Positions 8,502 to 25,402 of a stretch of 40,063 nt of DNA are shown in pieces. The position numbers and the translations under genes were made by a program. Under the pieces are notes generated by a model. That model did not search any database. It saw nothing but the letters and a program-made list of their open reading frames with translations, and was not told the DNA's origin. The stretch is taken from the NCBI GenBank assembly GCA_031290595.1, contig JAITNG010000028.1:1-40063 (forward strand), written 5' to 3'. The DNA is from Oscillospiraceae bacterium. GTDB lineage: Bacteria > Bacillota > Clostridia > Oscillospirales > Acutalibacteraceae. How positions within the stretch are numbered: the stretch's first letter is position 1; every line of letters starts with the position of its first letter.

Positions 8502-8538
8502 GGTTGTACCCCCGGCATGGCTACGCCGGGGTACAACC
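8502..8538. repeat. Hairpin GGTTGTACCCC(C)GGC...GCCGGGGTACAACC (REP-like palindrome)
   Basis: Read directly: arms of about 14 bp with a single bulged C, located between the phage module and the corA promoter. Confidence 0.6.
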
Positions 8539-8564
8539 TGAAAATAGAAATATACCGCACGTTG

Positions 8565-8590
8565 CCGGGACACGGCACGCCGTGTCCCGG
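8565..8590 (-). terminator. Terminator/REP-like hairpin CCGGGACACGGC-AC-GCCGTGTCCCGG closing the phage head module
   Basis: Perfect 12-bp arms. On the minus strand it is followed by the T-rich GTGCGGTATATTTCTATTTTC. It belongs to the CCnGGACAnGGC hairpin family also seen at 13905 and 38938. Confidence 0.65.
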
Positions 8591-8610: not shown

Positions 8611-9453
8611 TCACGCCACCGCAAAGTAAACATACGGCGTATACGCCAGATTGAGCGCCGCTGTGGTGGTGCCGGCTGCGACGGCTGCGCCGCTGCGCAG
8701 ACGGAAGCCCGTTGCTGTGACGGAAAGCCCCTGCGTGCCGCCTTCGCGGGTGGCGTAGCCGAAATACGACTGCGCGGCGCCGCCGGTGAAGTTGGCGTAA
8801 ACCACTGGCAGATCCGCCGCGAAGGCGAAGACGGCGCGGGGGTGCAGGCCGAGTTCGATGTTCTGCGTGGCCGCGCCGGAACCGAGGTATGTCCCCGTGC
8901 GGAAGGGCGCGTCCACCCAGCCTTTTTCGGCGGCGGAAAGATGAATATCGCCGTTGCCGATGTGGCTGCCGCAGAGCAGATCCTTGCTCAAAAAGGAGGT
9001 CAGGGTCAGCCCCGTGCTTTCCGCCGGGCAGAAGTCCGCGATGATCTCCGCCCAGGCTTCCAGCACAAACGCATCCGTGTCGCGGTGGGCGGCAACGTCG
9101 CCGCAGCCGGATTCCGGGATGTTGAGGTCGCTGGCAAAGGTGAGCATATCCAGCACGGATGTGAAGATTTCGTGGCAGCGGTCGCCGCCTTCGGCAAAGG
9201 GGACGTGCACGCCCAGCCGTAGGCGGATCACCGCTGTGCGGCAGTATTCCTGGCGTTCGAGCACGCCGTCGTCGTTTTCTGCAAACTTATCGGTGATCGC
9301 TACGGTATCCACCCCAACGGCCACGATGGCGCTGCGCAGCGGAACCGCCTTGTTTGCGGCGGGGTATTCCGTCAAAAAGCCGACGTCTTGCAGCGGCTCC
9401 TGTTCGCCGAGCCATTGGGCGATTGCGCCCGGCATGGCGCTGATTGCGCTCAT
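8611..9453 (-). CDS. Phage neck/tail-completion-like N-terminal domain fused to a beta-rich C-terminal domain of unknown function, 280 aa; last gene of the module
   Basis: The ATG at 9453 (MSAISAMPG...) follows RBS AAAGGTG, and the track ORF extends spuriously to 9603. Its position after the adaptor and stopper genes fits a gp17/HK97-gp10-like neck protein. The C-terminal half (HIGNGDIHLSAAEKGW...TGTYLGSGAATQNIELGLHPRAVF...) resembles fibre or jelly-roll-type phage domains, but I cannot assign it. Confidence 0.55.
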   Translation of the reverse strand: MSAISAMPGAIAQWLGEQEPLQDVGFLTEYPAANKAVPLRSAIVAVGVDTVAITDKFAENDDGVLERQEYCRTAVIRLRLGVHVPFAEGGDRCHEIFTSVLDMLTFASDLNIPESGCGDVAAHRDTDAFVLEAWAEIIADFCPAESTGLTLTSFLSKDLLCGSHIGNGDIHLSAAEKGWVDAPFRTGTYLGSGAATQNIELGLHPRAVFAFAADLPVVYANFTGGAAQSYFGYATREGGTQGLSVTATGFRLRSGAAVAAGTTTAALNLAYTPYVYFAVA

Positions 9454-9481
9454 ATGTTTGATCACACCTTTCGTTGTAGCC

Positions 9482-9814
9482 CTATTCCACAATGCTGCGG
9501 ATAATCGCCCAGACGTGGCTGGCTTCCGCGCCGCAATGGACTGTTTCCGCACGGTCAACGGTGTAGCGTTCTTCGCCGCATTCGATGCTGGCTTCCCGCC
9601 CAAGCAGGTTCAGGTCATGTTCCGGCGGCCCCAGGTAGAGGTAGTAGCCTTCCCGGTTGAAGCCGATGCGGGTGTTGACCCCGCCAAGGTACATCTTGTT
9701 TTTGTAGCGCAGCGGCTGGATGAACGCGCCGAAGGTTTCGCTCTGCCAGCCATCGGGCAAGCGGAGCCGCACCGGGCGCCCGTAGCGCTGCATGATCTGG
9801 CGAATTTCCTTCAT
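9482..9814 (-). CDS. Putative phage head-closure/stopper (SPP1 gp16-like) protein, 110 aa
   Basis: The call rests on size and position directly after the gp6/gp15-like adaptor. A 4-nt ATGA overlap couples it to the upstream gene. Confidence 0.5.
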   Translation of the reverse strand: MKEIRQIMQRYGRPVRLRLPDGWQSETFGAFIQPLRYKNKMYLGGVNTRIGFNREGYYLYLGPPEHDLNLLGREASIECGEERYTVDRAETVHCGAEASHVWAIIRSIVE

Positions 9815-10224
9815 GCGGCGCCCCCGTGCGTGTGGAACGCCGTTGTGCGCACCGCAAAGCCCCGGTCGCGCAGCAACTCCGCCACGGCGGCAAGGCCTTC
9901 GGCACGCAGACGCTCCGCCCGCTCAATGCGCCGGAGGAAGGCTTCTTCCCCCCGCTTGCGCACGGTAATATCCCCGGCCTTGAAGCTCTCGATTTGTGCA
10001 TCCTCCTCCGCTGCCGCGCGGCTTTCCGCCCGTTGCAGCACCAGGCAGTAGGCGATCCCGGCGGCGGCGCGGTCAATGCGCGGGTCGTCCGGGTTTGCGT
10101 CCGACCGGAGCAGCGGGTGCAGCTGGGCAAGCGCGGCGGCGCAAAAGGGCAGCGCCGCCCGCGCAGCTTCGTCGTCCAGTTCGGTGAGCAGCCGCAGTTG
10201 CCCCAAAACGGTTCCCTGGCTCAT
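9811..10224 (-). CDS. Phage head-tail connector/adaptor (gp6/gp15-like), 137 aa
   Basis: A helical N-terminal half is followed by FKAGDITV...R, which is typical of the Phage_connect_1 family. It is the first gene after the MCP, and RBS AAAGGAGG precedes it. Confidence 0.65.
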   Translation of the reverse strand: MSQGTVLGQLRLLTELDDEAARAALPFCAAALAQLHPLLRSDANPDDPRIDRAAAGIAYCLVLQRAESRAAAEEDAQIESFKAGDITVRKRGEEAFLRRIERAERLRAEGLAAVAELLRDRGFAVRTTAFHTHGGAA

Positions 10225-10252
10225 GGATGAAACCTCCTTTCGTCATTTGCAA

Positions 10253-10281
10253 GGGGCGGGCGGCTGCCCGCCGCCCGCCCC
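10253..10281 (-). terminator. Strong GC hairpin (11-bp stem) immediately after the capsid gene; a putative attenuator or mRNA stabiliser rather than a full terminator
   Basis: GGGGCGGGCGG-N7-CCGCCCGCCCC, read directly. No U-tract follows on the minus strand; the next bases are TTGCAAATG. Confidence 0.5.
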
Positions 10282-10299
10282 GTTCCCCCAAAATCGCAG

Positions 10300-11298
10300 T
10301 TATGCAAGCGCCTTCACAGCGCCGGCGTGGAGTTTGGCAAAGCCCACCGTGGCGGTGATGGCCGCGCGTTCCAGCTGGTGGTCAATCAGCTTATCATAAT
10401 CGGTGACGACGCCGCCCGCCGTGACCATTTCGAGCGCGCTGTTCTTATCCAGGGCAAGGATGCGCCCGGCAGGGACGGCGTTGGATTTGATCAGCTCCGC
10501 GCCCAGCGGGGTCACCAGGCGGCCTGTGCCGTGGAAGTTCAGCCCGGCGGTCGCGTCGCGGAATTCCGCCATGGCCAGCAGCTGCTGCATCTGCGCGGCG
10601 GGGGCGAGCAGCGTCGTCATGGCAAAGGGATCCATGCTGTTCCACAGCGTCAGCAGGTCGGCGTAAGCCAGGCTGCCGCCCGCCATGCCCACTTCCGCCG
10701 CAGCTTCGCCAGTGCCGCCGTCGCCATTGAGCAGCACATCCACCGCTTCGGTCAGCAGGGTTTTGGCGATTTCCGCGCCGATTTGCCGCAGCGTGACGGT
10801 GAACAGCTCCAAACGGTGGAAACGGATCGCTTCGTAGCTGGCCGAAAGCAGACGGCCATGCTTGTGCATGGCGACAAGGCTTTGCTTGTTCAGCACCTTG
10901 GTTTCGGGCAAAGCGCCGCCTTCGGCAATGGCCGCTTCCGTGCTGCCGGAACCCGCAACCGTTTCAATCGAGCGGTAATCCAGCCCGTTGACCTGCGTGG
11001 TGGTGGCGGTGATGCGGGGCAGCACGTCGCTGCGCTCCATCCCCTGGCGCACCGCGCGGGCGATGTATTCCGGGAAGAGGGTGGCCGTTTCGGCGCTTTG
11101 GAAGAACTTTTCGACCCGGTCGCTCCCCGCGCCGCTGATGCGGATGCCGAAGCGCTTGAGCTGGCGTTCGTAGGCGTCCAGTTCGCCCAAAGGCGTGCCG
11201 CAATATTGCGCGGTGGGGTCGGCCAGCTCAAGGGTCTTCGCAAACCCCTGTGCAGAAGTGTAAAGGCTCTTATCCAACTTCAGATTATCATACGCCAT
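10300..11298 (-). CDS. HK97-fold phage major capsid protein, 332 aa
   Basis: Size and position after the protease/scaffold gene fit a capsid. The sequence style is typical of Clostridial phage capsid families (N-terminal SLYTSAQGF...LDAYERQLKRFGIR, C-terminal VTDYDKLIDHQLERAAIT). RBS AAAGGAGA precedes the ATG. Confidence 0.8.
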   Translation of the reverse strand: MAYDNLKLDKSLYTSAQGFAKTLELADPTAQYCGTPLGELDAYERQLKRFGIRISGAGSDRVEKFFQSAETATLFPEYIARAVRQGMERSDVLPRITATTTQVNGLDYRSIETVAGSGSTEAAIAEGGALPETKVLNKQSLVAMHKHGRLLSASYEAIRFHRLELFTVTLRQIGAEIAKTLLTEAVDVLLNGDGGTGEAAAEVGMAGGSLAYADLLTLWNSMDPFAMTTLLAPAAQMQQLLAMAEFRDATAGLNFHGTGRLVTPLGAELIKSNAVPAGRILALDKNSALEMVTAGGVVTDYDKLIDHQLERAAITATVGFAKLHAGAVKALA

Positions 11299-11373
11299 AA
11301 TTCAAATCTCCTTTTCGATGTGTTTTTTGATGTGTTGTAGGTAGGTTTTTGATGGATTGCTTTTGGGCTTGAT

Positions 11374-12375
11374 TTAGTTGAGCCGAAAGTCGGCGTTTTC
11401 GGCCGCCGGGGGGTCTGCGGGGCGGCAGAGCTGCGGCCGCAGGGGGATGATTTTGCCCGCTTGCTTTTCCAGTGCCAGGGTGACGTCTTCCAGTTCCCCG
11501 GTGCTGAGGTTGTTGCACATGCGTGCCAGCAGGTCTTCCGCCAAACCGGGCAGCGCAACCAGGGCGGTGCGCTGCGCCTTGGCCAGCAGGTTGCTGCGGT
11601 AGGCGCGCCCGTCGGCGGCTAGGGTTTCGAGCTGCTCCAGTTCAGCTTGCAGGGCTTTTGCCGTGGCGTCATCCATCGTGATGGCTTCGCCACCGGCTGC
11701 ATCAAAGAGCTTGCGTAAATCTTCCATGCTTTGGATCCTCCTTTCTTTTGGGATTTGCTTCGCCTGCCAGGCTTTGATCACACCGGCGCCGGGCTGTGCG
11801 GGCACCGCTACGAACGAAAACTCGTAGGCGTCCGTCGGCTCCTCCAGCCGGGCGTGGCAGGGGATTCCGTCCACGATCTCCCCCTTGCGGTGGGTGCAGC
11901 CCTCCCGGCCAAACACCTTGCCACAGGCCGAACAGCGCACCGCCTTCACCGCGCAGCTGACGCTGACCTCCTTTTTGATCCCCGCGTCAATCTGCCGGCA
12001 AAGCTCCGCCGTGCTTTCGCTGCGCAGCATATAGATTTTGCCGACCAGGCTTGTGTAGGCCTCGCCCAGGCTGGTTTTGCGGGCGGGGTCGGTGCGCAGC
12101 TCCGTGTCATAAACGCGCATCAGCTGGTCGCTTGCCCGCATACTGTGGTCAAACAGCCCCGTTTTGCCGGTGAAGCGCTTGGCCAGGGCTTCCAGGCTCT
12201 CCACCGGGAAGCGTTCGCCGTCCCGGTCGATCTCGTTGTCGCACAGCGCCGCACGGAACACGTAAAGCTCTTCGGCGGGCAGCGGTCTGCGGGTCAAACG
12301 ATGGATCAGTTTGAGGTCGTCCGCGCCGGGCGTGCAGGGCTGCGCCTCCCGCCCCGTTTGCTTATAAATATCCAA
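11374..12375 (-). CDS. HK97-family prohead serine protease fused to a C-terminal coiled-coil scaffold, with a Cys-rich zinc-ribbon-like insertion, 333 aa
   Basis: Motifs are CDNEIDRDGERF...GLFDH (catalytic His region), KKEVSVSCAV (Ser region) and EFSFVAVPAQPGAGV. The insertion reads CSACGKVFGREGCTHRKGEIVDGIPCH. The C-terminal part, ALQAELEQLETLAADGRAYRSNLL, is coiled coil. The TTG start at 12375 follows GGAGGG with 6 nt spacing. Confidence 0.8.
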   Translation of the reverse strand: MDIYKQTGREAQPCTPGADDLKLIHRLTRRPLPAEELYVFRAALCDNEIDRDGERFPVESLEALAKRFTGKTGLFDHSMRASDQLMRVYDTELRTDPARKTSLGEAYTSLVGKIYMLRSESTAELCRQIDAGIKKEVSVSCAVKAVRCSACGKVFGREGCTHRKGEIVDGIPCHARLEEPTDAYEFSFVAVPAQPGAGVIKAWQAKQIPKERRIQSMEDLRKLFDAAGGEAITMDDATAKALQAELEQLETLAADGRAYRSNLLAKAQRTALVALPGLAEDLLARMCNNLSTGELEDVTLALEKQAGKIIPLRPQLCRPADPPAAENADFRLN

Positions 12376-12378
12376 TGC

Positions 12379-13581
12379 TTACCCTCCTGTTCCTTCCTTG
12401 ATTTTTGCCGCCTGCGCCCGGAGTAATTCTGCGCGTGCGAGTTCCACTTCATCCGCCAGGGTGATGTCATCCCACACCACCGTGCAGGGGGCGGCGTAGC
12501 CCTGCGCCGCCAGCATTGTCTGGCTGATGCGCAAAATCACGGGCGTCAGGATGCGGCGGTAGCTTTCCAGTTCGCTGGTGAGCAAATCGGCTTGCTGGGC
12601 GCTCATCCGCTCCGTGCTGGACCAGGTCAGGCCGAGCAAAAAGGGCGGCAGCCCGGTTTTGGCCACAATCTGTTCCAGCAGCTGGCGGATGGGGATTTCG
12701 CTTTCCGGCAGCGGCGCTTCCGCGCCGATCACCCGGATGCTGACGTCCCCTGCGGCGATGAAATCCCGCACGCCCGCGCCTTCCTGCATCGCGGCTTCCC
12801 ACTGCGTGGCCAGCTCCTGCACCCGTTCCCGTGTGTGCAGCCGCTCTGCGGGGTCGCTCCCCGGCTGGTATGTTACCGCAAAGCGGACGTTGCCCAGGCG
12901 TTCCCAGTTTTGCCCCAGCGTGTGCAGAATTTGCAGCAGCACACCGCTGACGAAGGGCAGCCCCTTGAGCAGCGAATTCCCCGCAAGCGCCCCGGGCAGG
13001 GGGTTGAGTACGCTGAGGTAGACCAGCTGCGGGTGCGGCACCGGCCGCAGCTGCTCCGGCTCGCCTGTGCAGATTTCCACATCCAGGCCGTTTGCCGCCC
13101 GGCAGAGCGTCACGCCCTCCGGCGGGGCGTTCCACAGTGCGGCGGGGGAGCCGTCTTCGCGCAGCACCAGTTCCCCCAGGGCGGTGCCGAGGGTCAGCAG
13201 CTGCTCAAAATAGGTCGCGACGAAGGCGTGGATCCCCCGCTGGTTGCCGCCCGCCGGGAGCAGCGCGAGGGTTTCGGCCAGCCAGCGCTCCGCCCGCGCA
13301 TCCGCGCACCCCACCCGGAAGCCGCCGACCAGCCGCACCAGGTGGAAGACGGCTGCGTCGATCAGCGGCACCGCCTCCCGCAGGGAATAGTAGAGCCGAG
13401 CCTCCGCCGCCGGGCAACAGTGCTCCATTTCCCCACAGAACCCCGCTGCGGCGCCGCTCTGCCCCGCGAGCATGGGGAAGGGCTGCGGATTCCCCCGGGC
13501 GGCGAGCGCCAAAGGAGCCGCCGCCTGCGCCGAACCCCCGGCGCGTTTACGTTTCCGCCAACCGGCGGAAGAGTTTGCCAT
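12379..13581 (-). CDS. Phage portal protein, about 400 aa
   Basis: Size and position between terL and the protease fit a portal. Its stop codon is embedded in the protease RBS. The ATG at 13581 follows AAAGGA with 9 nt spacing. Confidence 0.75.
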   Translation of the reverse strand: MANSSAGWRKRKRAGGSAQAAAPLALAARGNPQPFPMLAGQSGAAAGFCGEMEHCCPAAEARLYYSLREAVPLIDAAVFHLVRLVGGFRVGCADARAERWLAETLALLPAGGNQRGIHAFVATYFEQLLTLGTALGELVLREDGSPAALWNAPPEGVTLCRAANGLDVEICTGEPEQLRPVPHPQLVYLSVLNPLPGALAGNSLLKGLPFVSGVLLQILHTLGQNWERLGNVRFAVTYQPGSDPAERLHTRERVQELATQWEAAMQEGAGVRDFIAAGDVSIRVIGAEAPLPESEIPIRQLLEQIVAKTGLPPFLLGLTWSSTERMSAQQADLLTSELESYRRILTPVILRISQTMLAAQGYAAPCTVVWDDITLADEVELARAELLRAQAAKIKEGTGG

Positions 13582-13597
13582 GGCAATCAATCCTTTC

Positions 13598-13632
13598 TAG
13601 ACTTTAGATTTTAGATGGTAGATGGTAGATGG
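13598..13632. repeat. Five tandem heptamers: TAGACTT TAGATTT TAGATGG TAGATGG TAGATGG
   Basis: Read directly. The array abuts the portal RBS and its near edge lies 17 nt upstream of the portal ATG in minus-strand orientation. Confidence 0.85.
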
Positions 13633-13652
13633 TTTCTCGATTGAAATCGTTA

Positions 13653-13813
13653 TTTTAAAGCCCCGGTCGACTGCTAGTCGACCCTACAAATTTTACGGCT
13701 GATAGCCGATTGTTGACGTGCCTTCGTGAAAACAATAAATGTGGGTAGTGGGTGAACCGGCTATTAGCCGTACCATTTGTAGGGTCGACTAGCAGTCGAC
13801 CGGGGCTTTAAAA
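13653..13813. repeat. 161-bp MITE-like palindromic multi-hairpin element with TTTTAAAGCCC...CCCTACAA termini
   Basis: The arms are about 56 bp and near-perfect inverted repeats, identical for 38 nt. Each arm holds its own hairpins: GGTCGAC-TGCTA-GTCGACC and CGGCT-GAT-AGCCG. There is no ORF. Confidence 0.85.
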
Positions 13814-13904
13814 TGTCTTTTGCCCCAAGCGCACATACGATGAAGTGTTTTTATTGAGGAACAGTATAAAAGACTTCTTTCGTTCAACCTTGTGCATTAG
13901 CGCA

Positions 13905-13930
13905 CCTGGACAAGGCAAGCCTTGTCCAGG
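13905..13930. repeat. REP-like hairpin CCTGGACAAGGC-AA-GCCTTGTCCAGG just after the terL stop
   Basis: Perfect 12-bp arms with no U-tract on the minus strand. It belongs to the same family as the hairpins at 8565-8590 and 38938-38963. Confidence 0.7.
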
Positions 13931-13945
13931 AACATGTGTGACCAA

Positions 13946-15211
13946 TCACTTTCCCCCCCGCCGCGCCGTTGCCGCAAAAAGCCCGCCGCTTGCTTCTTCC
14001 CCGCGCAGCACTGTGACTGTGAAGTAGCGCATGTCGTCCATTGCGTGGTCGTTTTCTTTGCGCGGCGCATCCTTGTTGCCGCCCGGATCCCAACGGTAGA
14101 GCGAGAATTCCCGCAAACAATCGGTGCAGCCCTGCGCAAAGCCAAGTACGCCCGCCTGTAAAGCGTCCGCCACGCGGCGGATGCCGTAAAGCACATCGTT
14201 GTTGGCCGGGATCGCCGCAAACCGCCCGTGCCGCCGGATGCATTCCAAAAAGCTGGCCGCCGAGGGGTCGCAGATCACGCCGCGGATCGGCAGCGCCGCC
14301 GCCAGTTCTTCCAGCGCATGGTAATGCTCTTCGTCGGTGCGCTGGCAGCCCCTTGCGCGGCTATCCCAATAATACTCCCGCAGCCGCAGCCACCTGCCGC
14401 CGCAGCCCCCCCAAAGCCCGAACGAAGCCGGGTTCACCGTGCCGTAGTCGCAGGAAATCCAGTATTCCCCACAGGCCGCAGGGGCTTCCGCAAACACGTG
14501 CTTTTCCGCCGAAAACATGGGGTAGACCAGGCCTTCCGCCGCCACCCAGCGGCCTTCCACAAACCGGGCATAAAACGCGCCGGAATAGAGCTTCTTATAC
14601 CTTGCCAGCATCGCCGGGCTGAGCGAGGGGTTGTCCTCCATACAAAAATGAATATAAAGGCAATTCTTCTCCTCCGCCTTGCAAATCCACTCTGTGTGGA
14701 ACCAGTGCGCCGGGTATTCCGGGTTGCAGTTGAACCAGAGCTTCGAGCGTTCCAGCGAACAGCGGGCTATCGCCTGTTCCACAAACGAGCGGGGCATCAG
14801 CGCGACTTCATCCAGCAGCACGCCCCCCAGCGTCATGCCCTGGATCAGTGCGGCCGAACCTTCATCCTTGCCGCCGAACAGATAAAACCGGTTGCACCTG
14901 CCGCCGTATGCTATTTCCACCAGGTTTTGGCTGCGCTTTTCGCTGCAACAGAACCCCAGTTCCCCCAACAGCGGCAGCAACGGCGTGATCACGTTGCGCC
15001 GCAGCGAAGTCACCGTTTTGCCGCAGATGGCAAACGAACTGCCCGCAAACGCCGCCATCGCCCAGCCCACAAACGAAATCCCCATGCAAAGCGTCTTCCC
15101 CGAACGCACCGCCCCGTCGCAAATTACCGCATCGCATCCGCTCCAACCGCTCCCCGGGTGCCACCAATGCAAAGCCAAAACCTGCTTCTCCGAAAATTTT
15201 TTTAGGGTCAT
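13946..15211 (-). CDS. terL: Phage terminase large subunit (PBSX/Terminase_3-like), 421 aa
   Basis: It has Walker A GAVRSGKT, Walker B GGVLLDEV and the nuclease-domain acidic motifs ISCDYG and DHAMDD. It follows the small terminase gene. Confidence 0.92.
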   Translation of the reverse strand: MTLKKFSEKQVLALHWWHPGSGWSGCDAVICDGAVRSGKTLCMGISFVGWAMAAFAGSSFAICGKTVTSLRRNVITPLLPLLGELGFCCSEKRSQNLVEIAYGGRCNRFYLFGGKDEGSAALIQGMTLGGVLLDEVALMPRSFVEQAIARCSLERSKLWFNCNPEYPAHWFHTEWICKAEEKNCLYIHFCMEDNPSLSPAMLARYKKLYSGAFYARFVEGRWVAAEGLVYPMFSAEKHVFAEAPAACGEYWISCDYGTVNPASFGLWGGCGGRWLRLREYYWDSRARGCQRTDEEHYHALEELAAALPIRGVICDPSAASFLECIRRHGRFAAIPANNDVLYGIRRVADALQAGVLGFAQGCTDCLREFSLYRWDPGGNKDAPRKENDHAMDDMRYFTVTVLRGEEASGGLFAATARRGGK

Positions 15212-15259
15212 AGTTTTCCTTTCATAAGAATTGGGGCTTGATCTTCCTACTTACGGCGT

Positions 15260-15817
15260 TCAGGGGCTTTCCGGCTCTTGCGGCACAGCCGCCAAAGAAC
15301 GTTCGATGGCGGCGTAGAAGTCTTTTGCGCCGTTGCTGCTTTCTTCCGGGCTGCCCAGGGCTTCCAGGCGGCGCAAGGCTTCGCAGCGGTCAAAAAACTT
15401 GATTTCCAGCCCGCCGCCCTTGGGGCGCTTGATGTCGCTGACGTTGAACACATCCATCTTTTCAAGCAGCGCCGATGTGGGGGTTTCCTCCAAAAAGAGC
15501 AGCTTCAGCGCATCCGTCCCCGCGCCAAAGGCCAGGCGGCGGTATCCCGCCAGCACCTCCGCCCGCAGCGGTTCCTCCGCTGTGCCGCTTGCAATTTCTG
15601 CGCGTATATCTTCCCGCGCCAACAGCTCCATCGCCGCGTGCTGCGGGGAACCTTTATAACCCGCCCAGGCGGCGGCCCCCGCCTCGTTGCGCGTGCGGCG
15701 GAACAGGGCGCAAAACAACAGCTCCTGCCCCGTGAGTTCTTCCGGCTTCTTTCCGTCATTGCGCTTCGGCAAACAAAACACCCCCTCACTTATCCCCACC
15801 AAAAGGCGAAAGCGCAT
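15260..15817 (-). CDS. terS: Phage terminase small subunit (Terminase_2-like)
   Basis: LTGQELLFCALFRRTRNEAGAAAWAGYKGSPQHAAMELLAREDIRAEI matches the HTH core of the family, and IKFFDRCEALRRLEAL matches the C-terminal motif. The start is uncertain. The ATG at 15817 has no RBS, whereas the TTG at 15772 follows GAGGGGG. The track start at 15895 is unlikely. Confidence 0.75.
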   Translation of the reverse strand: MRFRLLVGISEGVFCLPKRNDGKKPEELTGQELLFCALFRRTRNEAGAAAWAGYKGSPQHAAMELLAREDIRAEIASGTAEEPLRAEVLAGYRRLAFGAGTDALKLLFLEETPTSALLEKMDVFNVSDIKRPKGGGLEIKFFDRCEALRRLEALGSPEESSNGAKDFYAAIERSLAAVPQEPESP

Positions 15818-15941
15818 CACTTTTTTGATGCAGAATAAAAATTTTTTTGAAAAGCTGCTCAAAATCACGGTTTTTGCGGCTGCAAAAGCAAGCAAAGCCT
15901 TATCTTCCTCAAGTTTTACGTGATTACTTTTTACTTATTGC

Positions 15942-15970
15942 TTGCTATTCCCCTACGTCTGTGCTATAAT
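15942..15970 (+). promoter_or_regulatory. sigma70-type promoter TTGCTA-17-TATAAT for the permease gene
   Basis: Hexamers and spacer were read directly. It is divergent from terS. Confidence 0.6.
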
Positions 15971-16014: not shown

Positions 16015-17427
16015 ATGCAGCTGAAACCTTTGATCCGCGAAACCCGCAGACAGGTCAACCGCACTACCTCCATCCTCTTTTTGGTGCAGCTCTTCGGCGC
16101 CCTGGGGGCGGGCTTCTTCTTCGTCGTGCAAAACATCCTCAAGGTGGATGGGATGCTTGGCGCACTGGAACCAAAGAATGAACAGATTCTTTGGTTCATT
16201 CTTTTTTGGGGGACGGATTTTTTCATGATCTCCCTCAGCGCGGTGCTTTGTTACCTGATCGCCGGGCTGCCGGGGTTGGCGCCGGGGCTGGCGCTTGCGG
16301 TCTATTTCGCCCACTTTGCGGGCGACGCGCCCGTCACGGCGGAGGAGGGCTACTTCGCCTACTTCGCCACGCCCCTGCACGGCGGCGGCGGCGTGAACAT
16401 CGGTTACGTGAGCTACTTTTTGATGGCGCTGGTGTGCGGCCTGCTGATCAAGCTGCTGTATGCCGGTTGGAGCGAAGCGAAAATCCGCCTGGGCAAGCGG
16501 CTGGATACGACACTGGCCAAGCTGCGCAAAAAAATAAAGCTGCTCCCGGCGGCGCTCACGGGCGAACAAGTCCTCGAAAACGTCGATCTCATTGTGCTGG
16601 TGCTGATCATCCCGGTGGCCAGCGCGGCGTTCACCTTTGTGGCCGTCCGCTATGGGATCCAAAAGCCCTTCGGTTCCCTGGCCGGGGCGATTGTGGAACC
16701 CCTGCTCCGCCTGGCGGAAAGCCACATCCTCATCGTCGGGCTGATTTTGGGGCTGCTGGCGGGGTTCGACATCACCGGCCCCATGAGCATGGCGGGCTTT
16801 GCCGTGGCGACGGCGGCATTTTTGCAGCAGGGCGATGCGCGGCTGCTGACGATCTATGGCGCGTGCTTCATCGCAACGGGCTGGTCGCCGCTGTTCATGG
16901 TGCTGCTCGCGAAGCTACGCAAAAAACCCGCGACAGATACGGACGACATGAACTTTGCGGTGAGCGGGCCGATCAACGCCTTTTTTGAGAACATCAAGCT
17001 GACGGTGGCGTTCAGTATGCCCTTCGCCCTGCGCAGCCCGCTGACGGTGATCCCCGGGCTGATGGCCGGGAGCGCCTTCACCGGCTGGCTGACGGCGGCG
17101 GCGGGGATTGTCAACACCTCCTACCTGCGCGAATCGCCCAAATACGCCCGCGGCAAGGGCATGGCCGAACTGCTTGAACGCGGCGAAATCTACCTTTCGT
17201 TCTCGCTGCCCCTGCGTTCCGGCGATTGGCTGCGCTGCCGCATCCCGCTGTTTTTTATCATCCTGGCAGGTGGCCTGGTGGGCGGCGCGGTGATGTATGC
17301 CCTCCGGCTGCAACAGGTGAAAAACCAAAAAAAGCGCGGCACCTACGTGGAAAGCCAGGGCGACATCGTGCTGGAAATGCGGCTGTTGGCCAAAGAGCGG
17401 CTGCGGGGGGTGAAGGGCGAGGAATGA
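16015..17427 (+). CDS. Polytopic membrane permease, PTS fructose-family EIIC-like, 470 aa; no EIIA/EIIB nearby
   Basis: It has about 10 hydrophobic segments. GFDITGPMSMAGFAVATAAF resembles the EIIC-Fru GFDxGGPxNKxAxxF motif. This comes from memory only, so the family call is tentative. Confidence 0.45.
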   Translation: MQLKPLIRETRRQVNRTTSILFLVQLFGALGAGFFFVVQNILKVDGMLGALEPKNEQILWFILFWGTDFFMISLSAVLCYLIAGLPGLAPGLALAVYFAHFAGDAPVTAEEGYFAYFATPLHGGGGVNIGYVSYFLMALVCGLLIKLLYAGWSEAKIRLGKRLDTTLAKLRKKIKLLPAALTGEQVLENVDLIVLVLIIPVASAAFTFVAVRYGIQKPFGSLAGAIVEPLLRLAESHILIVGLILGLLAGFDITGPMSMAGFAVATAAFLQQGDARLLTIYGACFIATGWSPLFMVLLAKLRKKPATDTDDMNFAVSGPINAFFENIKLTVAFSMPFALRSPLTVIPGLMAGSAFTGWLTAAAGIVNTSYLRESPKYARGKGMAELLERGEIYLSFSLPLRSGDWLRCRIPLFFIILAGGLVGGAVMYALRLQQVKNQKKRGTYVESQGDIVLEMRLLAKERLRGVKGEE

Positions 17428-17449
17428 CAAAATGACTAAAAAAACAAGA

Positions 17450-17476
17450 CGCAGGGCAGAAAAGCGCTGCCCTGCG
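17450..17476 (+). terminator. Probable terminator hairpin CGCAGGGCAG-N7-CTGCCCTGCG after the permease gene
   Basis: Read directly. The T-run (TTTTTT) begins about 10 nt after the stem, so the efficiency is uncertain. Confidence 0.5.
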
Positions 17477-17504
17477 CAATTTCGACATTTTTTCGCGGAA
17501 TATG

Positions 17505-17533
17505 TTGACATACGCTTAAAAATGCTGTATAAT
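17505..17533 (+). promoter_or_regulatory. Perfect-consensus sigma70 promoter TTGACA-17-TATAAT at the edge of the low-GC islet
   Basis: Read directly. It lies about 170 nt upstream of the first islet gene. Confidence 0.65.
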
Positions 17534-17650
17534 AAGGTAAAGCGACAAATTAATCCCTTGATTTGCCGTTTGCATCATGTTAATACCATCCATATTATGG
17601 GGATTTACAAAAAATACCTTATGCATTATGATGAATTTAACGGTTTTCGC

Positions 17651-17679
17651 TTGCAAAAGGTTTGAATATTTGCTATACT
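17651..17679 (+). promoter_or_regulatory. Second sigma70-type promoter TTGCAA-17-TATACT, proximal to the first islet gene
   Basis: Read directly. It lies about 24 nt upstream of the GTG at 17703. Confidence 0.6.
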
Positions 17680-17702
17680 AACTATGTATCGGAGGATGGC
17701 GA

Positions 17703-18254
17703 GTGAAACGATGGTTTCAACGGCTCGGTATTGCAACAGCGCACGAACCCATCAAACGTAGGGAGCGTTGGAGCTTCATTTTCCAATCGGTTCCGATACT
17801 CTTGGTTTGGGGGTTGACGTTTTGGTTGCTTGGGGGACGCGAATCGGCGGTTTATGCGTATTGGCTGGCGTGGATGTCTTGTACTTGCGGATTGATTGCT
17901 CTTGCACTGGAAAAGAAAACACTTGATGCCGAATTCAGGAAGAGGACATATCATGTTAGAAAACTGCGAAAGCCCTTTGTTTTATTCCGTCTTCAAATTC
18001 GCGCGATACTCGTAATAGCTACGTTTGTTGCGAGTGAAGTAGTTGCCATTCTGCATCCAGCCGATCTGCTGAACAGCCTGGATGTGCATTCGTCCCTGGC
18101 TGTAGACAGTCCCACAGAGCAGTGGCATAAGATGTTTGCCGCAATTGTTATATTCGTTCTGTTCGTTTCTGAGATTCTTGACTTATCGCTGCGGCTGTTT
18201 GGGCTACGATCTGTCATTCGGTTCGACACACAAAAAGGAGTTATCCATGAGTAA
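17703..18254 (+). CDS. Hypothetical membrane protein with about 4 TM segments, 183 aa (low-GC islet gene 1)
   Basis: The GTG start follows GGAGGA with 6 nt spacing. It has hydrophobic segments and no recognisable family motif. Confidence 0.6.
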   Translation: MKRWFQRLGIATAHEPIKRRERWSFIFQSVPILLVWGLTFWLLGGRESAVYAYWLAWMSCTCGLIALALEKKTLDAEFRKRTYHVRKLRKPFVLFRLQIRAILVIATFVASEVVAILHPADLLNSLDVHSSLAVDSPTEQWHKMFAAIVIFVLFVSEILDLSLRLFGLRSVIRFDTQKGVIHE

Positions 18255-18426
18255 AGAAGGATTCACATTTATATTACCGGCGCTGATCGCAAGTTTGGTC
18301 GGCATAGTCTGCTTGTTCAGTTCACCGCAATCAGGCAAGATCAAAAAAAGAATGAGAAACAGGCGGTGCAAAATTGTGCAGCCGGAATATCATGGAAGTT
18401 ACTCCCCGGATGAAAACGAGGTGTGA
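18247..18426 (+). CDS. Small single-TM protein with a basic tail, 59 aa (low-GC islet gene 2)
   Basis: The ATG at 18247 overlaps the upstream stop (ATGAGTAA) and follows AAAAGGAG. The sequence is MSKEGFTFILPALIASLVGIVCLF...KKRMRNRRCK. Confidence 0.5.
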   Translation: MSKEGFTFILPALIASLVGIVCLFSSPQSGKIKKRMRNRRCKIVQPEYHGSYSPDENEV

Positions 18427-18438
18427 GGAGAATTGCAT

Positions 18439-19008
18439 ATGAACGGAGAAAAGGAACAAGGAGTCGCTGTCGCAAATTTGCTTTGGCAATATTACGAGTT
18501 AATAATCCAAAACGCGAAGCAGGGAATCAAGAAACTTAACCCCATTACAACGAAGGAAAAGAAGCGAGAATTTGTGCAGGGCTTCGTCGAAAAATACGAC
18601 GAATTCATAGAAAAATATATGGTTAAAAGAAGCAAGGGATTGGACGCTCATAAAGTAGCTGCGCTTGCAATCGTTCAGCTTTTGGCAATGGATTTGCTGG
18701 AAAAACCAGTGAAAGACGGTTACTACACCGCGCAAGAGATCGCAATTGACGTTGGGCTAACGTTCATGCAGGGGCAACTGGATGATACCCTAAAAAAGAA
18801 AGGGATCGTCCCGCCAATCACGCAATATGTGATGCCGGTTCCGTTTTCATGTGATACGCCTTATGCCGGGGTTCTTGCACGCGAGTTGGAGGTCGCCAAA
18901 GATTGCCCGCCCTTGCAGCGTGCTTTTAGCCTCGCCAACGAGCTGTTCCTACTTGAATATATTACGCTGTTGAGCAACCACATTGATCCGCAGCTGCTCA
19001 AACACTAG
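18439..19008 (+). CDS. Hypothetical soluble helical protein, 189 aa (low-GC islet gene 3)
   Basis: The ATG at 18439 follows GAGGAGA with about 7 nt spacing. No motif was recognised, and a good terminator follows the gene. Confidence 0.6.
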   Translation: MNGEKEQGVAVANLLWQYYELIIQNAKQGIKKLNPITTKEKKREFVQGFVEKYDEFIEKYMVKRSKGLDAHKVAALAIVQLLAMDLLEKPVKDGYYTAQEIAIDVGLTFMQGQLDDTLKKKGIVPPITQYVMPVPFSCDTPYAGVLARELEVAKDCPPLQRAFSLANELFLLEYITLLSNHIDPQLLKH

Positions 19009-19041
19009 CCCTTAAAAAATTACCCAAAAACACCACGGAAT

Positions 19042-19078
19042 CCGGCGAAAGATTTTCGCTGGGTTTTGTGTTTTTTTT
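19042..19078 (+). terminator. Rho-independent terminator ending the low-GC islet
   Basis: Hairpin CCGGCGAAA-GAT-TTTCGCTGG with one G:T pair, followed by GTTTTGTGTTTTTTTT. Confidence 0.8.
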
Positions 19079-19089
19079 CAAAGAAAACA

Positions 19090-19118
19090 TTGCGTTACAC
19101 CGCCATATTTGTTATAAT
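19090..19118 (+). promoter_or_regulatory. sigma70-type promoter TTGCGT-17-TATAAT for the PFOR gene
   Basis: Read directly. It lies about 57 nt upstream of the ATG at 19176. Confidence 0.65.
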
Positions 19119-23815: not shown

Positions 23816-25402
23816 TCAAAAGAGTTTGAGGCCAAAGATTTCGAGGATCGCGAGCAGATCCACGTTGGTCACTTCACGAATCCAATCGGCGAAGGGCAGC
23901 AGCCATGCGAGCAGGCCGTTGAGCAAATCGCCGGCATGGGGGATGGGATCGCCGAATTCGTCATTCAGGCCGCCCAGCACCGTCGCCCAGCGCTCCAGGC
24001 GCGTCTTCAGCCAATCCCAGGTGCGAACCGGCGCTGCGGGGCTATAGACCGGGAAGGGGTTGCTTGGGTCGGCCTTCCACTGCGCTTCCAAGGTGATTTC
24101 GTAGTTGTTGTAGGGTTCCAGGGCGGAATAGGCGCCCTCACGCTGACCCGCGACGATGTCGGGGGAGTTGGTAACACCAGCATTGTTGGTGATGCCAACG
24201 ATGCGCCAGCCGTCAAAGATCGCTTGCCCGGTGCCGTTGACGCCCTTGTATTCGCAAGCATAGTCGATGGTGATCAGTTCATCCAGCACCGCCGTGTTGG
24301 TAAGCAGGCCATAAAATGTCACCGATCTCTGCGTATTCACGAGCTTGCCAGCTGTATCCAGATAAATGTCGCTAAGGAACGCATAGGAACTGGGCGGTGT
24401 GGGGAGAGCAGGGGGTATGGGGAGGGGCGGTGTGGGCGCCGTCCAGGTGTAAGGCAGCAACGGATAGCTGCCGTTGGCGTTCTTGTTGGGGATCGTAGTG
24501 CTGGTGTTGCCGGTGTAGACCAGCGGATAGGGCAGACGTTCGCCGGTGACCGGGTGATAGTAGTTCGCAGGCGCAAAACCCAGCGCTTTGCCGCCGATGC
24601 CGGGGACGGTCAGCGTGGTGTTATCCGCAATATTCGCCTGGAAGGGACTGCCGGCGAGGTAGCCAAAACGCCCCAGGGTGTAATAGGAGAACACCTGGGT
24701 GGTGCCGTCCTGAATGTAACTGGGGTCGTCTTCACCCACCTTGGCAAAGACGGTCTTTGTGCGGTCAAGCACGTTTGTGCCGGCACTGGCGGCGGGGAAC
24801 AACGCCTTGGTGAACAGGGGGTGATCCACGTCGTCCACTTTTTCGGTGACAACATCGCCGTTGGCGTCCACTTTTTCTGAGCCGTCGGCGTTGAGCACGG
24901 GCACCGTCTTTTTGGGGCTGTTGTATGTCTTGTTGTAAAAAGTGTTTTGCAGGGTGCCGGGCGTGAAGCGCAGGTTGACCCAGGCGATGGTGTCTTTCAC
25001 AAATGCGCCGTTGTTATACCCCGGACCGGTCAGACTGGTTTCAAACCAGCTGTTGGCCACAAAGGTGTCGCCCGGGTTGACGGTGAGGGTGGCGAACAGC
25101 GCTTCCACCCGTGGGGTGATCGAGGCCAGCTCCGCTTTATCCGCTTCATACTGTTCCTTGGCGGTATCCAGCACGACGGGGATGTTGACGGCTCTTTGCA
25201 GCGTATAGTAGCGGGAGAGCAGACTGTCCGGGTCGCTGGCGCTGCCGAGCTCCGCCAGCGCCGCTGTGTAAACCGCGTATTTGCCCGCCTCATCCTTGGC
25301 GGCAAAGAACGGCGCCCCTGCCGCAGAACCGCTGATTGCGAAGACGCCCATCGCCATCAACAGCGCCAACAGCAATGCGGTTAGCTTTTTGATTGACTTC
25401 AT
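23816..25402 (-). CDS. Secreted hypothetical protein, 528 aa, with signal peptide, Pro-rich linker and one Listeria-Bacteroides-repeat-like unit
   Basis: The signal peptide is MKSIKKLTALLLALLMAMGVFAISGSAAG. The linker is TAPTPPLPIPPALPTPPSS. The unit AIFDGW...YEITLEAQW is repeat-like. The C-terminus is amphipathic and hydrophobic. RBS AAGGAGGA precedes the ATG. Confidence 0.6.
   Translation of the reverse strand: MKSIKKLTALLLALLMAMGVFAISGSAAGAPFFAAKDEAGKYAVYTAALAELGSASDPDSLLSRYYTLQRAVNIPVVLDTAKEQYEADKAELASITPRVEALFATLTVNPGDTFVANSWFETSLTGPGYNNGAFVKDTIAWVNLRFTPGTLQNTFYNKTYNSPKKTVPVLNADGSEKVDANGDVVTEKVDDVDHPLFTKALFPAASAGTNVLDRTKTVFAKVGEDDPSYIQDGTTQVFSYYTLGRFGYLAGSPFQANIADNTTLTVPGIGGKALGFAPANYYHPVTGERLPYPLVYTGNTSTTIPNKNANGSYPLLPYTWTAPTPPLPIPPALPTPPSSYAFLSDIYLDTAGKLVNTQRSVTFYGLLTNTAVLDELITIDYACEYKGVNGTGQAIFDGWRIVGITNNAGVTNSPDIVAGQREGAYSALEPYNNYEITLEAQWKADPSNPFPVYSPAAPVRTWDWLKTRLERWATVLGGLNDEFGDPIPHAGDLLNGLLAWLLPFADWIREVTNVDLLAILEIFGLKLF

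Follow-up and report, generated by a model that had tools for sequence, protein, structure and literature searches.

In Faecalibacterium prausnitzii, FpGTA (Borodovich et al., Nat Commun 2026, PMC12946183) forms particles without a visible tail; it is near-ubiquitous across the genus. It consists of a head operon plus a separate 5.5-kb operon for fiber, RBP, and lysis functions, ∼125 kb away. The same study reports that 4-10 kb chromosomal fragments are packaged in a GTA-like manner in several Oscillospirales genera, with the locus unassigned, and head-only clusters of mouse gut Oscillospirales have been flagged as GTA or satellite candidates (bioRxiv 10.64898/2026.07.08.737213). The cf-PICIs (Alqurainy et al. 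2023, bioRxiv 10.1101/2022.09.08.507074) are mobile islands that package themselves, carry att sites as well as integrase, regulator, and replication modules, and yield tail-less DNA-filled capsids. PBSX-type elements, represented by the defective prophages PBSX and PBSZ of Bacillus, are domesticated and package host DNA; PBSX itself, one element of ∼28 kb with a full contractile tail (sheath, tube, long tape measure, and fibers), xre-type regulators, and lysis genes, packages DNA without transferring it (discussed in PMC12946183). RcGTA of the Alphaproteobacteria encodes a tail tube, tape measure, distal tail, hub, and fibers.

Here, we describe a 7.2-kb locus in a 40,063-nucleotide stretch of DNA from an Oscillospiraceae bacterium (contig JAITNG010000028.1; hereafter, the window). 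Its genes encode a small and a large terminase (terS and terL), a portal, a putative protease-scaffold fusion (g4), an HK97-type capsid protein, a putative adaptor (g6), a predicted stopper (g7), and g8 (Table 1). With moderate confidence, we favor the reading of the locus as a GTA-like viriform: a head, packaging, and neck module of phage origin that has been domesticated and has an extremely reduced tail. Like FpGTA, it is a chromosomal operon of gut Oscillospirales in which a few structural genes come after terS-terL-portal-X-capsid, and both lack integrase and replication genes. FpGTA differs in that its capsid is annotated as N4-gp56 family, a Prp-like gene stands between portal and capsid, and a podovirus tail nozzle is encoded in its operon I, whereas the window has a PBSX-family TerL, a Ser-protease/scaffold fusion of 333 residues, and an SPP1/lambda-like neck with a stopper and a terminator fold. 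The window capsid protein had no N4-gp56 match in NCBIfam. We reject orthology with FpGTA on the grounds of the N4-type capsid and tail nozzle, albeit indirectly, from annotation alone and without a sequence alignment; on this indirect comparison, the window locus is likely an independent domestication. It shares with cf-PICIs its own terminase, portal, protease, capsid, and head-tail connectors and the absence of dedicated tail genes, and with PBSX and PBSZ the PBSX-family terminase (TIGR01547). RcGTA, too, is vertically inherited, under purifying selection, and without replication or integration genes; further shared features are presumptive control in trans and a head-packaging-neck gene order including adaptor and stopper. 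Unlike the window locus, PBSX and RcGTA encode the tails listed above, and RcGTA shows no sequence-level relationship beyond shared folds and belongs to a different host phylum.

Table 1. Features of the locus, in operon order, with the evidence for each
Feature	Coordinates	Strand	Basis
5' leader and putative operon control region	15773..15900	-	Sequence reading
Small terminase terS, ∼170 aa	15260..15772	-	Pfam Terminase_2 4.9e-6; phrog_2606
Large terminase terL, PBSX family	13946..15211	-	Terminase_6N; phrog_2 8e-45; NCBIfam TIGR01547
Palindromic REP/MITE-like insert, 163 bp	13652..13814	.	In terL-portal spacer
Portal	12379..13581	-	phrog_30703 3.5e-112; Pfam Phage_portal 9.8e-5 (below gathering cutoff)
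g4, 333 aa, putative prohead serine protease with C-terminal scaffold-like region	11374..12375	-	phrog_16951 1.8e-83
Major capsid protein, HK97-fold family PF25209	10300..11298	-	PF25209 3.5e-17; phrog_3922 3e-83
g6, putative head-tail adaptor	9811..10224	-	Position only
g7, predicted head-closure protein (stopper), SPP1 gp16-like	9482..9814	-	AF2 model and Foldseek
g8, 280 aa, fusion protein	8611..9453	-	AF2 (pLDDT 81) and Foldseek
Two hairpins 3' of g8, probable operon end	8502..8590	-	Sequence reading

An earlier note, made from the sequence alone, had reported eight collinear minus-strand head and packaging genes, and this held: all eight ORFs are confirmed and are full length relative to their homologues. 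Its claim that GC and codon style match the flanks held as well (RSCU r = 0.95; GC3 0.78 vs 0.77), and its claim of tightly coupled ORFs held in part. A gap of 365 nt, which contains the palindromic insert, separates terL from the portal gene, and the coupling is therefore not uniformly tight. The insert has arms of 60 nt that are 93% complementary, its RNA fold reaches -105 kcal/mol (z = -15), and its 19-nt core is found again in 35 metagenome contigs. It is missing from the two closest relatives, L086 and L001, which shows that it does not belong to the ancestral cluster; such a stable structure between terL and portal could harm downstream gene expression in this genome. We infer from alignment with homologues of 159-172 aa that terS likely starts at the TTG at 15772, preceded by the RBS GAGGGGG, and not at 15895. 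The TerL ATPase and nuclease motifs are intact, as had been claimed: 70 homologues show no variation at Walker A (G33-T40), Walker B (D134/E135), or the acidic nuclease positions D255, D315, and D392/393, and the protein scores 141 bits against the PBSX-family model (cutoff 105). The portal likely starts at the ATG at 13581. The PHROG family matched by g4 is of unknown function, its NCBIfam match to a prohead protease/MCP fusion is weak (6.7e-5), and a PDB profile search gave no match. H77, S138, and a CxxC...C.H...C pattern are invariant in 21 homologues, and a Zn ribbon is inserted in the putative protease; we regard g4 as a putative prohead serine protease whose catalytic role is inferred. 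The capsid protein has >7,900 homologues.

The neck genes rest on evidence of differing strength. A gp6/gp15-like adaptor had been proposed for g6, but the window protein has no match in Pfam, PHROG, or NCBIfam, and beyond position, the assignment has only eight weak phrog_541 "head-tail adaptor" matches among the pooled neck genes of relatives, in which g6 is conserved; we retain it as putative. The proposal that g7 is a gp16-like stopper held at the level of the structural model, a beta-barrel (pLDDT 83, pTM 0.75) with a disordered yet highly conserved loop at residues 38-52. Its best Foldseek matches are stoppers or neck proteins, e.g., SPP1 gp16 and the T1 stopper (7z4w_1, probability 1.0, TM 0.51; also 9l0e_A, 9c39_E, and 6toa_G, the RcGTA neck), with modest E-values (0.03-0.5), and the identification remains a prediction. 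The last gene, previously described as neck-like, requires correction, and it provides the new point of this analysis. g8 combines a tail-terminator fold (residues 1-141, AF2), a flexible linker (∼142-173), and a fiber- or adhesin-like beta-sandwich domain (∼174-280). Foldseek matched it to lambda gpU, T5 p142, and the pyocin collar in the PDB (E 5e-5 to 1e-2) and to tail terminator, tail completion, and DUF3168 proteins in BFVD. Its origin is chimeric; the two domains are separate genes in relatives, with a baseplate module in between, and two separate genes of L019 match the two halves (E 8e-18 and 1e-19). The relative P0213 matches DUF7483. In a profile search, the C-terminal domain turned up by itself; it also turned up in giant proteins with an initial signal or TM segment, where it forms 6-31 tandem repeats, a use suggestive of adhesion. 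With this fusion protein, the locus contains one tail-derived gene.

Apart from the tail-derived part of g8, no tail, lysis, integrase, or replication genes were found in the 40-kb window. Sheath, tube, tape measure, baseplate, lysis, and regulator genes are absent from the locus, and no ejection gene lies within 40 kb. The head cluster is flanked by housekeeping genes: Pfam searches of 30 flanking ORFs returned housekeeping families or no match and nothing else, and the window contains no tRNA and no Rfam match. The locus is not self-sufficient, since lysis, regulator, ejection, and tail genes are missing within 40 kb. It remains possible that it is the head half of a split, multilocus GTA, with baseplate/tail and lysis operons elsewhere and a short-tailed finished particle. 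There is precedent in operons I and II of FpGTA and in the dispersed RcGTA loci, and lysis functions must in any case sit elsewhere. Moreover, in some relatives the neck genes are immediately followed by LysM, hub, gpW-like, Baseplate_J, and gpI-like genes, in an XkdP-XkdU-like order as in PBSX, and the lineage therefore once used a baseplate; these relatives are basal in the terL+MCP tree, and some also have a sheath-like ORF. Against a split GTA, the terminator domain of g8 is fused to the domain of the relatives' last tail gene, which looks like deletion of the intervening module and not relocation, and tblastn with all tail and baseplate families of the relatives gave no further match in the 40-kb window.

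The cluster is present in at least 553 Oscillospirales species genomes (GTDB). Its chromosomal contexts are conserved, with eight or nine genes between housekeeping genes in different genomes, and the window architecture accounts for 44 of the 86 loci compared by ORF clustering. In a phage collection, no close portal relative was present among named isolates (best 30% identity); closer matches came from five unannotated faecal-virome contigs, of which L005 was examined and has ABC-transporter genes 5' of the cluster. Across 14 syntenic species, cluster identity follows flank identity (Pearson 0.94, Spearman 0.90), and cluster and flanks are equally conserved (e.g., MCP 87%, MgtE 87%); between the window and L086, the flanks are 71-77% identical and the cluster proteins 70-88%. 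The cluster genes have a median dN/dS of 0.08-0.21 (terL 0.08, portal and capsid 0.12 each, g6 0.21), and the flanks one of 0.08-0.17. We note that the correlation and dN/dS are pairwise, that the pairs are phylogenetically nonindependent, and that dS is near saturation (median ∼1.1-1.3). Co-divergence, synteny, and purifying selection support that the host lineage keeps the locus and passes it on vertically within the Oscillospirales. Because of flank co-divergence, housekeeping-like dN/dS, and host codon usage, we consider the cluster domesticated and neither a decaying prophage nor a mobile satellite. That it is an inert, slowly decaying remnant is all but excluded. No promoter, regulator, or lysis gene is recognizable nearby, and a palindromic insert lies inside this genome's operon, as a remnant might show; however, the eight ORFs are intact across dozens of species at 45-88% amino-acid identity, selection equals that on the housekeeping neighbors, the catalytic motifs are invariant, and codon usage is ameliorated to the host.

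A satellite-like tail hijacker, whose tail-less capsids would be completed by tails of co-resident or co-infecting phages as in cf-PICI chimeric particles, is unlikely. In its favor, the gene content (terS, terL, portal, protease, capsid, connectors, and no tail) equals the cf-PICI morphogenetic module, and similar gut clusters have been likened to capsid-forming satellites (bioRxiv 10.64898/2026.07.08.737213). Unlike in cf-PICIs, however, no integrase, AlpA-type regulator, or primase-replicase was found in the window or in six distinct contexts, the only ones that the Pfam check covered, and the conserved chromosomal position and host co-divergence are unlike a mobile element. We also infer that an own terminator-fold ring with an added domain would fill the docking site of a foreign tail. 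Taken together, the distribution, co-divergence, selection, and codon data support the earlier note's claim of a candidate domesticated capsid-forming system, as opposed to a fresh prophage or simple decay. Two of the findings it had named as refutations were negative: L086 and L001 (capsid identity 77-78%) carry the same tail-less eight genes and no full prophage, and no frameshifting was seen in orthologues. None of its three sub-options (a GTA-like head locus whose partners lie elsewhere, a satellite, or a truly tail-less particle) is singled out, and the satellite is least favored because of vertical inheritance and the lack of integrase, replication, and regulator genes.

The leader contains a weak sigma70-like TTGAGC-17-TTTATT (15862-15834) and a palindrome, GCATCAAAAAAGTGATGC, at 15831-15814; the corresponding position in L086 holds a compensated palindrome, GCGTCAAAAAAGTGACGC. 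A promoter scan of the operon strand did not find a consensus sigma70 site, and the leader shows no significant fold (z = 0.16). The previously claimed hairpin, corA promoter, and divergent permease promoter are all present, the last at 15942-15970. A short distance upstream of the -35 box of the corA promoter (TTGACA-17-TACAAT, 8496-8468, promoter scan) are hairpins at 8565-8590 and 8502-8538, the latter with a T-rich tract behind it; a strict terminator scan lists neither, owing to imperfect stems or a missing T-tract.

Under the favored reading of a GTA-like viriform, transcription of the operon would start in the leader 5' of terS and depend on a regulator from another locus. Portal, g4 as protease-scaffold fusion, and capsid protein would assemble into procapsids, which TerS and the PBSX-type TerL would fill by a headful mechanism, most likely with chromosomal DNA, and g6 and g7 would close the portal channel as adaptor and stopper. 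A g8 ring, presumably hexameric as in tail terminators, would dock on the stopper at the usual tail-joining site and display beta-sandwich domains from an ancestral distal tail or fiber gene, which could attach to cell surfaces. For release by lysis and for DNA entry into a recipient, functions outside the locus would be required. Particle formation, host DNA packaging, the ring and binding role of g8, and gene transfer are all inferred; no experiment links the family to particles or packaged DNA. A host-beneficial particle with a nontransfer role (DNA export for biofilm/eDNA, a phage decoy, or an adhesive DNA-filled nanoparticle) is a doubtful alternative. It would fit the selection on an intact packaging motor and closed capsid in a locus without an ejection function, the adhesion suggested by the g8 C-domain repeats, and the precedent of PBSX, of the same terminase family; direct evidence is lacking, and this reading is one by exclusion. 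As a GTA-like viriform, the locus is a good candidate, though no more than a candidate, for the unassigned GTA-like DNA packaging of these bacteria.

Profile searches (Pfam, PHROG, NCBIfam) matched five of the eight cluster proteins, encoded by collinear minus-strand ORFs that are flanked by corA and a PTS-EIIC-like permease gene (table). The TIGR01547 score of the large terminase is 141 bits against an NCBIfam cutoff of 105, and 70 homologues show no variation in its Walker A and Walker B motifs or at three acidic nuclease positions. In g4, His77, Ser138, and a Cys/His zinc-ribbon pattern are all invariant in 21 homologues, and the protein weakly matches an NCBIfam prohead-protease/capsid fusion model, which together make an inferred role as protease plus scaffold plausible. 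The last three genes, g6, g7, and g8, have no family match, and profile searches of g4, g6, and g7 against PDB sequences returned no meaningful match. The structure model of the 110-aa g7 is a small beta-barrel (pLDDT 83, pTM 0.75) with a loop that is both disordered and highly conserved; its top Foldseek matches are SPP1 gp16, the T1 stopper, Sf14, FCWL1, and RcGTA necks, with high probabilities and modest E-values against head-closure and stopper proteins. The adaptor role of g6 is putative and rests on gene position and on a pooled set of 99 neck proteins, for which PHROGs gave weak "head-tail adaptor" matches and Pfam only noise. We note that in most relatives g4 and the capsid gene are separated by an extra gene of ∼112 aa, which matches phrog_4588 ("virion structural protein", 2.2e-20) and possibly encodes an accessory protein for decoration or scaffolding. 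The window and about 16 other loci lack it, and an hmmsearch for its fusion into g4 was negative.

Coordinates of features in the window and in related loci (L-numbers), with family matches where found
Feature	Locus	Position	Strand	Match or remark
corA	window	7373-8386
Gene cluster	window	8611-15772	minus	eight ORFs
terS	window	15772 (probable TTG start)	minus	Pfam Terminase_2
terL	window		minus	Terminase_6N; phrog_2, 8e-45; NCBIfam "PBSX family phage terminase large subunit", above cutoff
portal	window		minus	phrog_30703, 3.5e-112
g4	window		minus	333 aa, between portal and capsid; phrog_16951, function unknown
capsid protein	window		minus	PF25209; phrog_3922, 3e-83
163-bp palindromic element	window	13652-13814		between terL and portal
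Leader palindrome	window	15814-15831
PTS-EIIC-like permease	window	16015-17427
Low-GC stretch	window	17000-19100		GC 0.47-0.52, about 0.60 elsewhere
ORF in low-GC stretch	window	17703-18254		no Pfam match
ORF in low-GC stretch	window	18433-19008		no Pfam match
528-aa ORF	window	23816-25402		no Pfam or NCBIfam match
CorA gene	L086	2778-3737		adjoins cluster
MgtE gene	L003	4116-5471		divergent from terS
MgtE gene	L012	3974-5332		divergent from terS
∼112-aa gene	L076	9639-9974		between g4 and capsid gene
Counterpart of g8 residues 1-141	L019	11717-12289		E 8e-18
Counterpart of g8 residues 158-278	L019	16649-17182		37% identity, E 1e-19
Extra stretch	L154	5981-9055		between neck genes and LysM gene

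The capsid protein has >7,900 homologues in the protein collection, the named ones from Oscillospiraceae or Clostridiales MAGs. Contigs of homologues at 46-78% capsid identity always show the same 8-9 genes with the 280-aa protein last, set between unrelated housekeeping genes. When GTDB was scanned with one genome per species, at least 553 species genomes proved to carry a relative of the locus; the best 80 of these loci belong to Acutalibacteraceae, Oscillospiraceae, Ruminococcaceae, and unclassified Clostridia from human, ruminant, rabbit, and chicken guts. The top capsid identity to the window among the GTDB representatives retrieved is 63%, and the closest capsid relatives, L086 and L001, are 77-78% identical. 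ORF calling and clustering of 86 loci gave four architecture classes. Class A, the window type, ends in the 280-aa g8 (44 of the 86); class B ends in a ∼145-aa terminator domain alone (11 loci); in class C (17 loci, counting the rearranged L046 and L050) a run of LysM/XkdP-like, baseplate hub, gpW-like, Baseplate_J, and gpI-like genes comes after the neck genes, and a protein of 158-177 aa comes last; and the fourth class, of rearranged loci, is small. IMG/VR holds 237 relatives, mostly filed as 4-17 kb "viral" fragments, and class C is the commonest among the best 80 of them (46 loci). In L154, L158, L159, L162, L177, and L206, the neck genes and the LysM gene are set apart by an additional ∼3.4 kb. 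In L154, the only such locus examined, one ORF in this stretch is 340 aa long and weakly matches a tail sheath (5li2_A, E 0.006), and ORFs of 129, 143, and 170 aa come after it. Together they could represent a miniature contractile tail whose tape measure is very short. When terL+MCP sequences were placed in a midpoint-rooted NJ tree, the forms with baseplate genes came out as basal and paraphyletic, with classes A and B nested inside; from this we read a reductive evolution of the tail, taking both its direction and the number of events as tentative.

The final gene, called neck-like in an earlier note made from sequence alone, is instead tail-derived. The structure model of g8 (280 aa, pLDDT 81) has two domains with a low-confidence linker between them. 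The N-domain matches the tail terminators lambda gpU, T5 p142, and the R-pyocin collar, and its BFVD matches bear the names "tail terminator", "tail completion", or DUF3168; the C-domain is predicted to fold as a beta-sandwich. Residues 1-141 resemble the product of a terminator-like gene that stands by itself in classes B and C, residues 158-278 resemble the final gene of the class C tail module, and in L019 the two counterparts are separated by ∼4.4 kb of baseplate genes. The g8 protein is a chimera of two genes that remain separate in class C relatives. Among 1.84 billion representative proteins, a profile search returned the complete fusion (∼270-282 aa), the N-domain by itself (∼140-165 aa), the C-domain by itself (∼145-160 aa, very common), and proteins of 700-4000 aa with 6-31 tandem C-domain repeats. 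Both of the repeat-protein N-termini that we read (P0408, P0416) start with a signal or TM-like segment, and the giant P0408 had no match in the PDB. Since the C-domain occurs in fusions, alone, and as tandem repeats, it appears to be a modular surface-binding unit, with binding itself inferred.

Co-divergence was assessed in 14 species whose clusters have the same neighbours: MgtE on the upstream side, and YdjC-like and glycosidase-like genes on the downstream side. Identity averaged over TerL, portal, capsid, and g8 correlates with the average for four flanking proteins (Pearson 0.94, Spearman 0.90), and conservation is equal in the cluster (capsid 87%, TerL 84%) and its flanks (MgtE 87%, F10 83%). 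Median dN/dS is 0.08 for terL, 0.12 for portal and capsid, 0.14-0.17 for g4, g7, g8, and terS, and 0.21 for g6, with flanking medians of 0.08-0.17; these are pairwise NG86 estimates from non-independent pairs at high dS, so the values are rough and the direction is clear. The chromosomal position of the cluster is conserved across species. L086, the locus closest to the window, has the HEAT-DMP19-CorA flank in common with it at 71-77% identity, with cluster proteins at 70-88%, and codon usage of the cluster is host-like (RSCU r = 0.95; GC3 0.78 vs 0.77). By Pfam, 30 flanking ORFs fall into housekeeping families (teichoic-acid and glycosyl transferases, HEAT-repeat proteins, CorA, PFOR, FtsEX with an M23 peptidase, TrkAH, RibF, MFS, aldehyde dehydrogenase, BioY) or have no match. 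The window contains no tRNA and no Rfam family, and neither it nor six other Pfam-annotated contexts contain a replication, integration, or lysogeny-control gene. Co-divergence, purifying selection, and the lack of mobility genes in annotated contexts therefore exclude a fresh or decaying prophage, and the earlier claim to that effect held on synteny, co-divergence, dN/dS, and host-like codons.

The same note had left open a tail-hijacking satellite. Capsid-forming satellites (cf-PICIs), like the window locus, encode their own terminase, portal, protease, capsid, and connectors without tail genes, but they also carry an integrase, an AlpA-type regulator, a primase/replication module, and att-flanked mobility, whereas none of these genes was found in the window or annotated relatives. 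Co-divergence and the absence of integrase, replication, and regulator genes in annotated contexts argue against a mobile satellite, as does the conserved position. A PBSX-like prophage shares the PBSX-family large terminase with the window but unites a contractile tail, a lysis cassette, and an xre regulator in one element; Pfam and tblastn found no sheath, tube, tape measure, baseplate, lysis cassette, or xre regulator in the window. Further PBSX-like features occur in relatives only, as baseplate genes and, in some, a possible sheath. The main rival to the reading favored below, which remains possible, is that a baseplate and lysis operon is located elsewhere in the genome; the locus itself has no recognisable ejection gene.

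Two other statements of the earlier note required correction, namely the start of terS (table) and uniform tight coupling of the genes, which failed between terL and portal, where a 365-nt gap holds a 163-bp palindromic element. This element has 60-nt arms (93% complementary) around a 43-nt centre, and is predicted to form an RNA hairpin of -105 kcal/mol (z = -15); the closest relatives lack it. The core of the element, the 19-nt GGTCGACTGCTAGTCGACC, was found again in 35 metagenome contigs, often with several such contigs in one sample and often at a contig end, a pattern suggestive of a multi-copy repeat of the REP/MITE kind; an exact 29-mer of the element had no match in metagenomes. The element may affect expression in this genome. 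In the leader, the palindrome GCATCAAAAAAGTGATGC has a doubly compensated counterpart, GCGTCAAAAAAGTGACGC, upstream of terS in L086, and L001 has a different 7-bp palindrome at that place; an operator or RNA hairpin is conceivable, with only three sequences and no significance. A conserved regulatory motif upstream of terS was rejected, the k-mer enrichment being dominated by shared ancestry of syntenic MgtE-side intergenic regions. Strict terminator-like leader hairpins occur in 10 of 66 loci (∼0.9 expected), and the leader fold of the window is not significant. Relative to the CorA flank shared with L086 and to the permease flank shared with L001, the window has its cluster in inverted orientation, and no inverted repeats that might explain this were found at its boundaries. 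We also observed that Mg2+ transporters of two unrelated kinds adjoin the cluster in different clades: MgtE is divergent from terS in 30 of 86 loci, and in the window and L086 the neighbour is CorA. Rfam returned no M-box riboswitch at these genes, and the adjacency may be either chance synteny or shared regulation.

Criteria for GTAs and viriforms have been discussed, as in Kogay et al. 2022 (bioRxiv 10.1101/2022.06.10.494566) and by Lang and co-workers. A GTA has chromosomal, caudovirus-derived structural and packaging genes without replication, integration, or lysogeny control; these are inherited vertically, with purifying selection on the structural genes; near-random host DNA is packaged in pieces too small for all particle genes; and the packaged DNA is delivered to recipient cells. 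The cluster fits the gene-content criterion (window and six other Pfam-annotated contexts) and that of vertical inheritance and purifying selection. Support for random packaging of host DNA by this locus is only circumstantial. Borodovich et al. (PMC12946183) describe many gut Oscillospirales as packaging chromosomal DNA of 4-10 kb in a GTA-like manner, with GTA-type events lacking an assigned locus in Onthomonas, CAG-115, UBA11524, UBA1829, Ruminococcus_C callidus, and others. A portal search of 50,697 phage records returned five unannotated faecal-virome contigs, one cyanophage (30% identity), and nothing else. The one virome contig examined, MT835508.1 (L005; 46.7 kb, "Bacteriophage sp.", human faecal VLPs), carries a class B cluster and looks like bacterial chromosome because ABC-transporter genes lie upstream and no recognised phage genes downstream; its presence in VLPs reflects either GTA-type packaging of host DNA or contamination.

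The Faecalibacterium agent FpGTA (PMC12946183) combines a head operon with a distant fibre/lysis operon, which carries fibre, RBP, holin, and endolysin genes; its particles measure 40 nm, contain DNA of about 9 kb, and show no visible tail. Its annotated proteins include an N4-gp56-family capsid (RCH50849.1), a Prp-like protein, and a tail nozzle. In contrast, the window capsid matches no NCBIfam family at E <= 0.01, the protein between portal and capsid is g4 with no Prp match, and there is no nozzle-like gene, the last gene having a terminator fold. We reject orthology with FpGTA since the window proteins miss the FpGTA families and the neck is SPP1/lambda-like; this evidence is indirect, without sequence alignment, and on the same indirect test we conclude that the window locus is analogous and was domesticated independently. 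A 2026 preprint on mouse gut viromes describes head-only Oscillospirales clusters, termed GTA candidates or capsid-forming-satellite-like. Our literature search found no paper defining the present locus family.

On balance we favor a host-maintained particle system as the most likely reading, by a modest margin and without experimental demonstration. In such a system, portal, g4, and capsid protein would assemble a procapsid, TerS and TerL would package DNA, probably chromosomal, into it by a headful mechanism, and g6 and g7 would close it. A ring of g8 would then sit at the tail-joining site with its adhesin-like domains exposed, and regulation, lysis, and DNA entry would be encoded outside the locus. 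A bolder reading, possible only as a joint proposal, is a transducing particle that truly lacks a tail and for which one 7-kb host operon suffices as the coding locus. Its sole "tail" would be a terminator-fold ring fused to an adhesin-like beta-sandwich, it would have been reduced from a small PBSX-like myovirus via baseplate-only intermediates, and it would be the source of much of the unassigned 4-10 kb GTA-like packaging in gut Oscillospirales. If the tail-less reading is true, DNA would be delivered without a tail tube or ejection machinery, e.g., by surface docking followed by recipient uptake.

Recent long-read sequencing of gut virus-like particles shows that Oscillospirales package much chromosomal DNA in short discrete pieces, with a gene cluster assigned in Faecalibacterium only. 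For the other lineages, the present family offers a specific candidate that can be put to the test: it occurs in at least 553 species genomes, is common in human and ruminant gut metagenomes, and is under housekeeping-like constraint. The window locus is a concrete GTA-like candidate for an abundant gut-microbiome activity without an assigned locus, the link to that activity being inferred. Virus-detection pipelines already file such loci as "viral" (IMG/VR), and the five virome contigs matching the portal, of which the one examined carries the cluster, are deposited in GenBank as "Bacteriophage sp."; gut virome and prophage counts are therefore likely inflated. The tail-reduction series, from possible sheath and baseplate to baseplate only, terminator only, and terminator-adhesin fusion, could reveal a path from virus to host organelle and the minimum needed to close and target a DNA-filled capsid.
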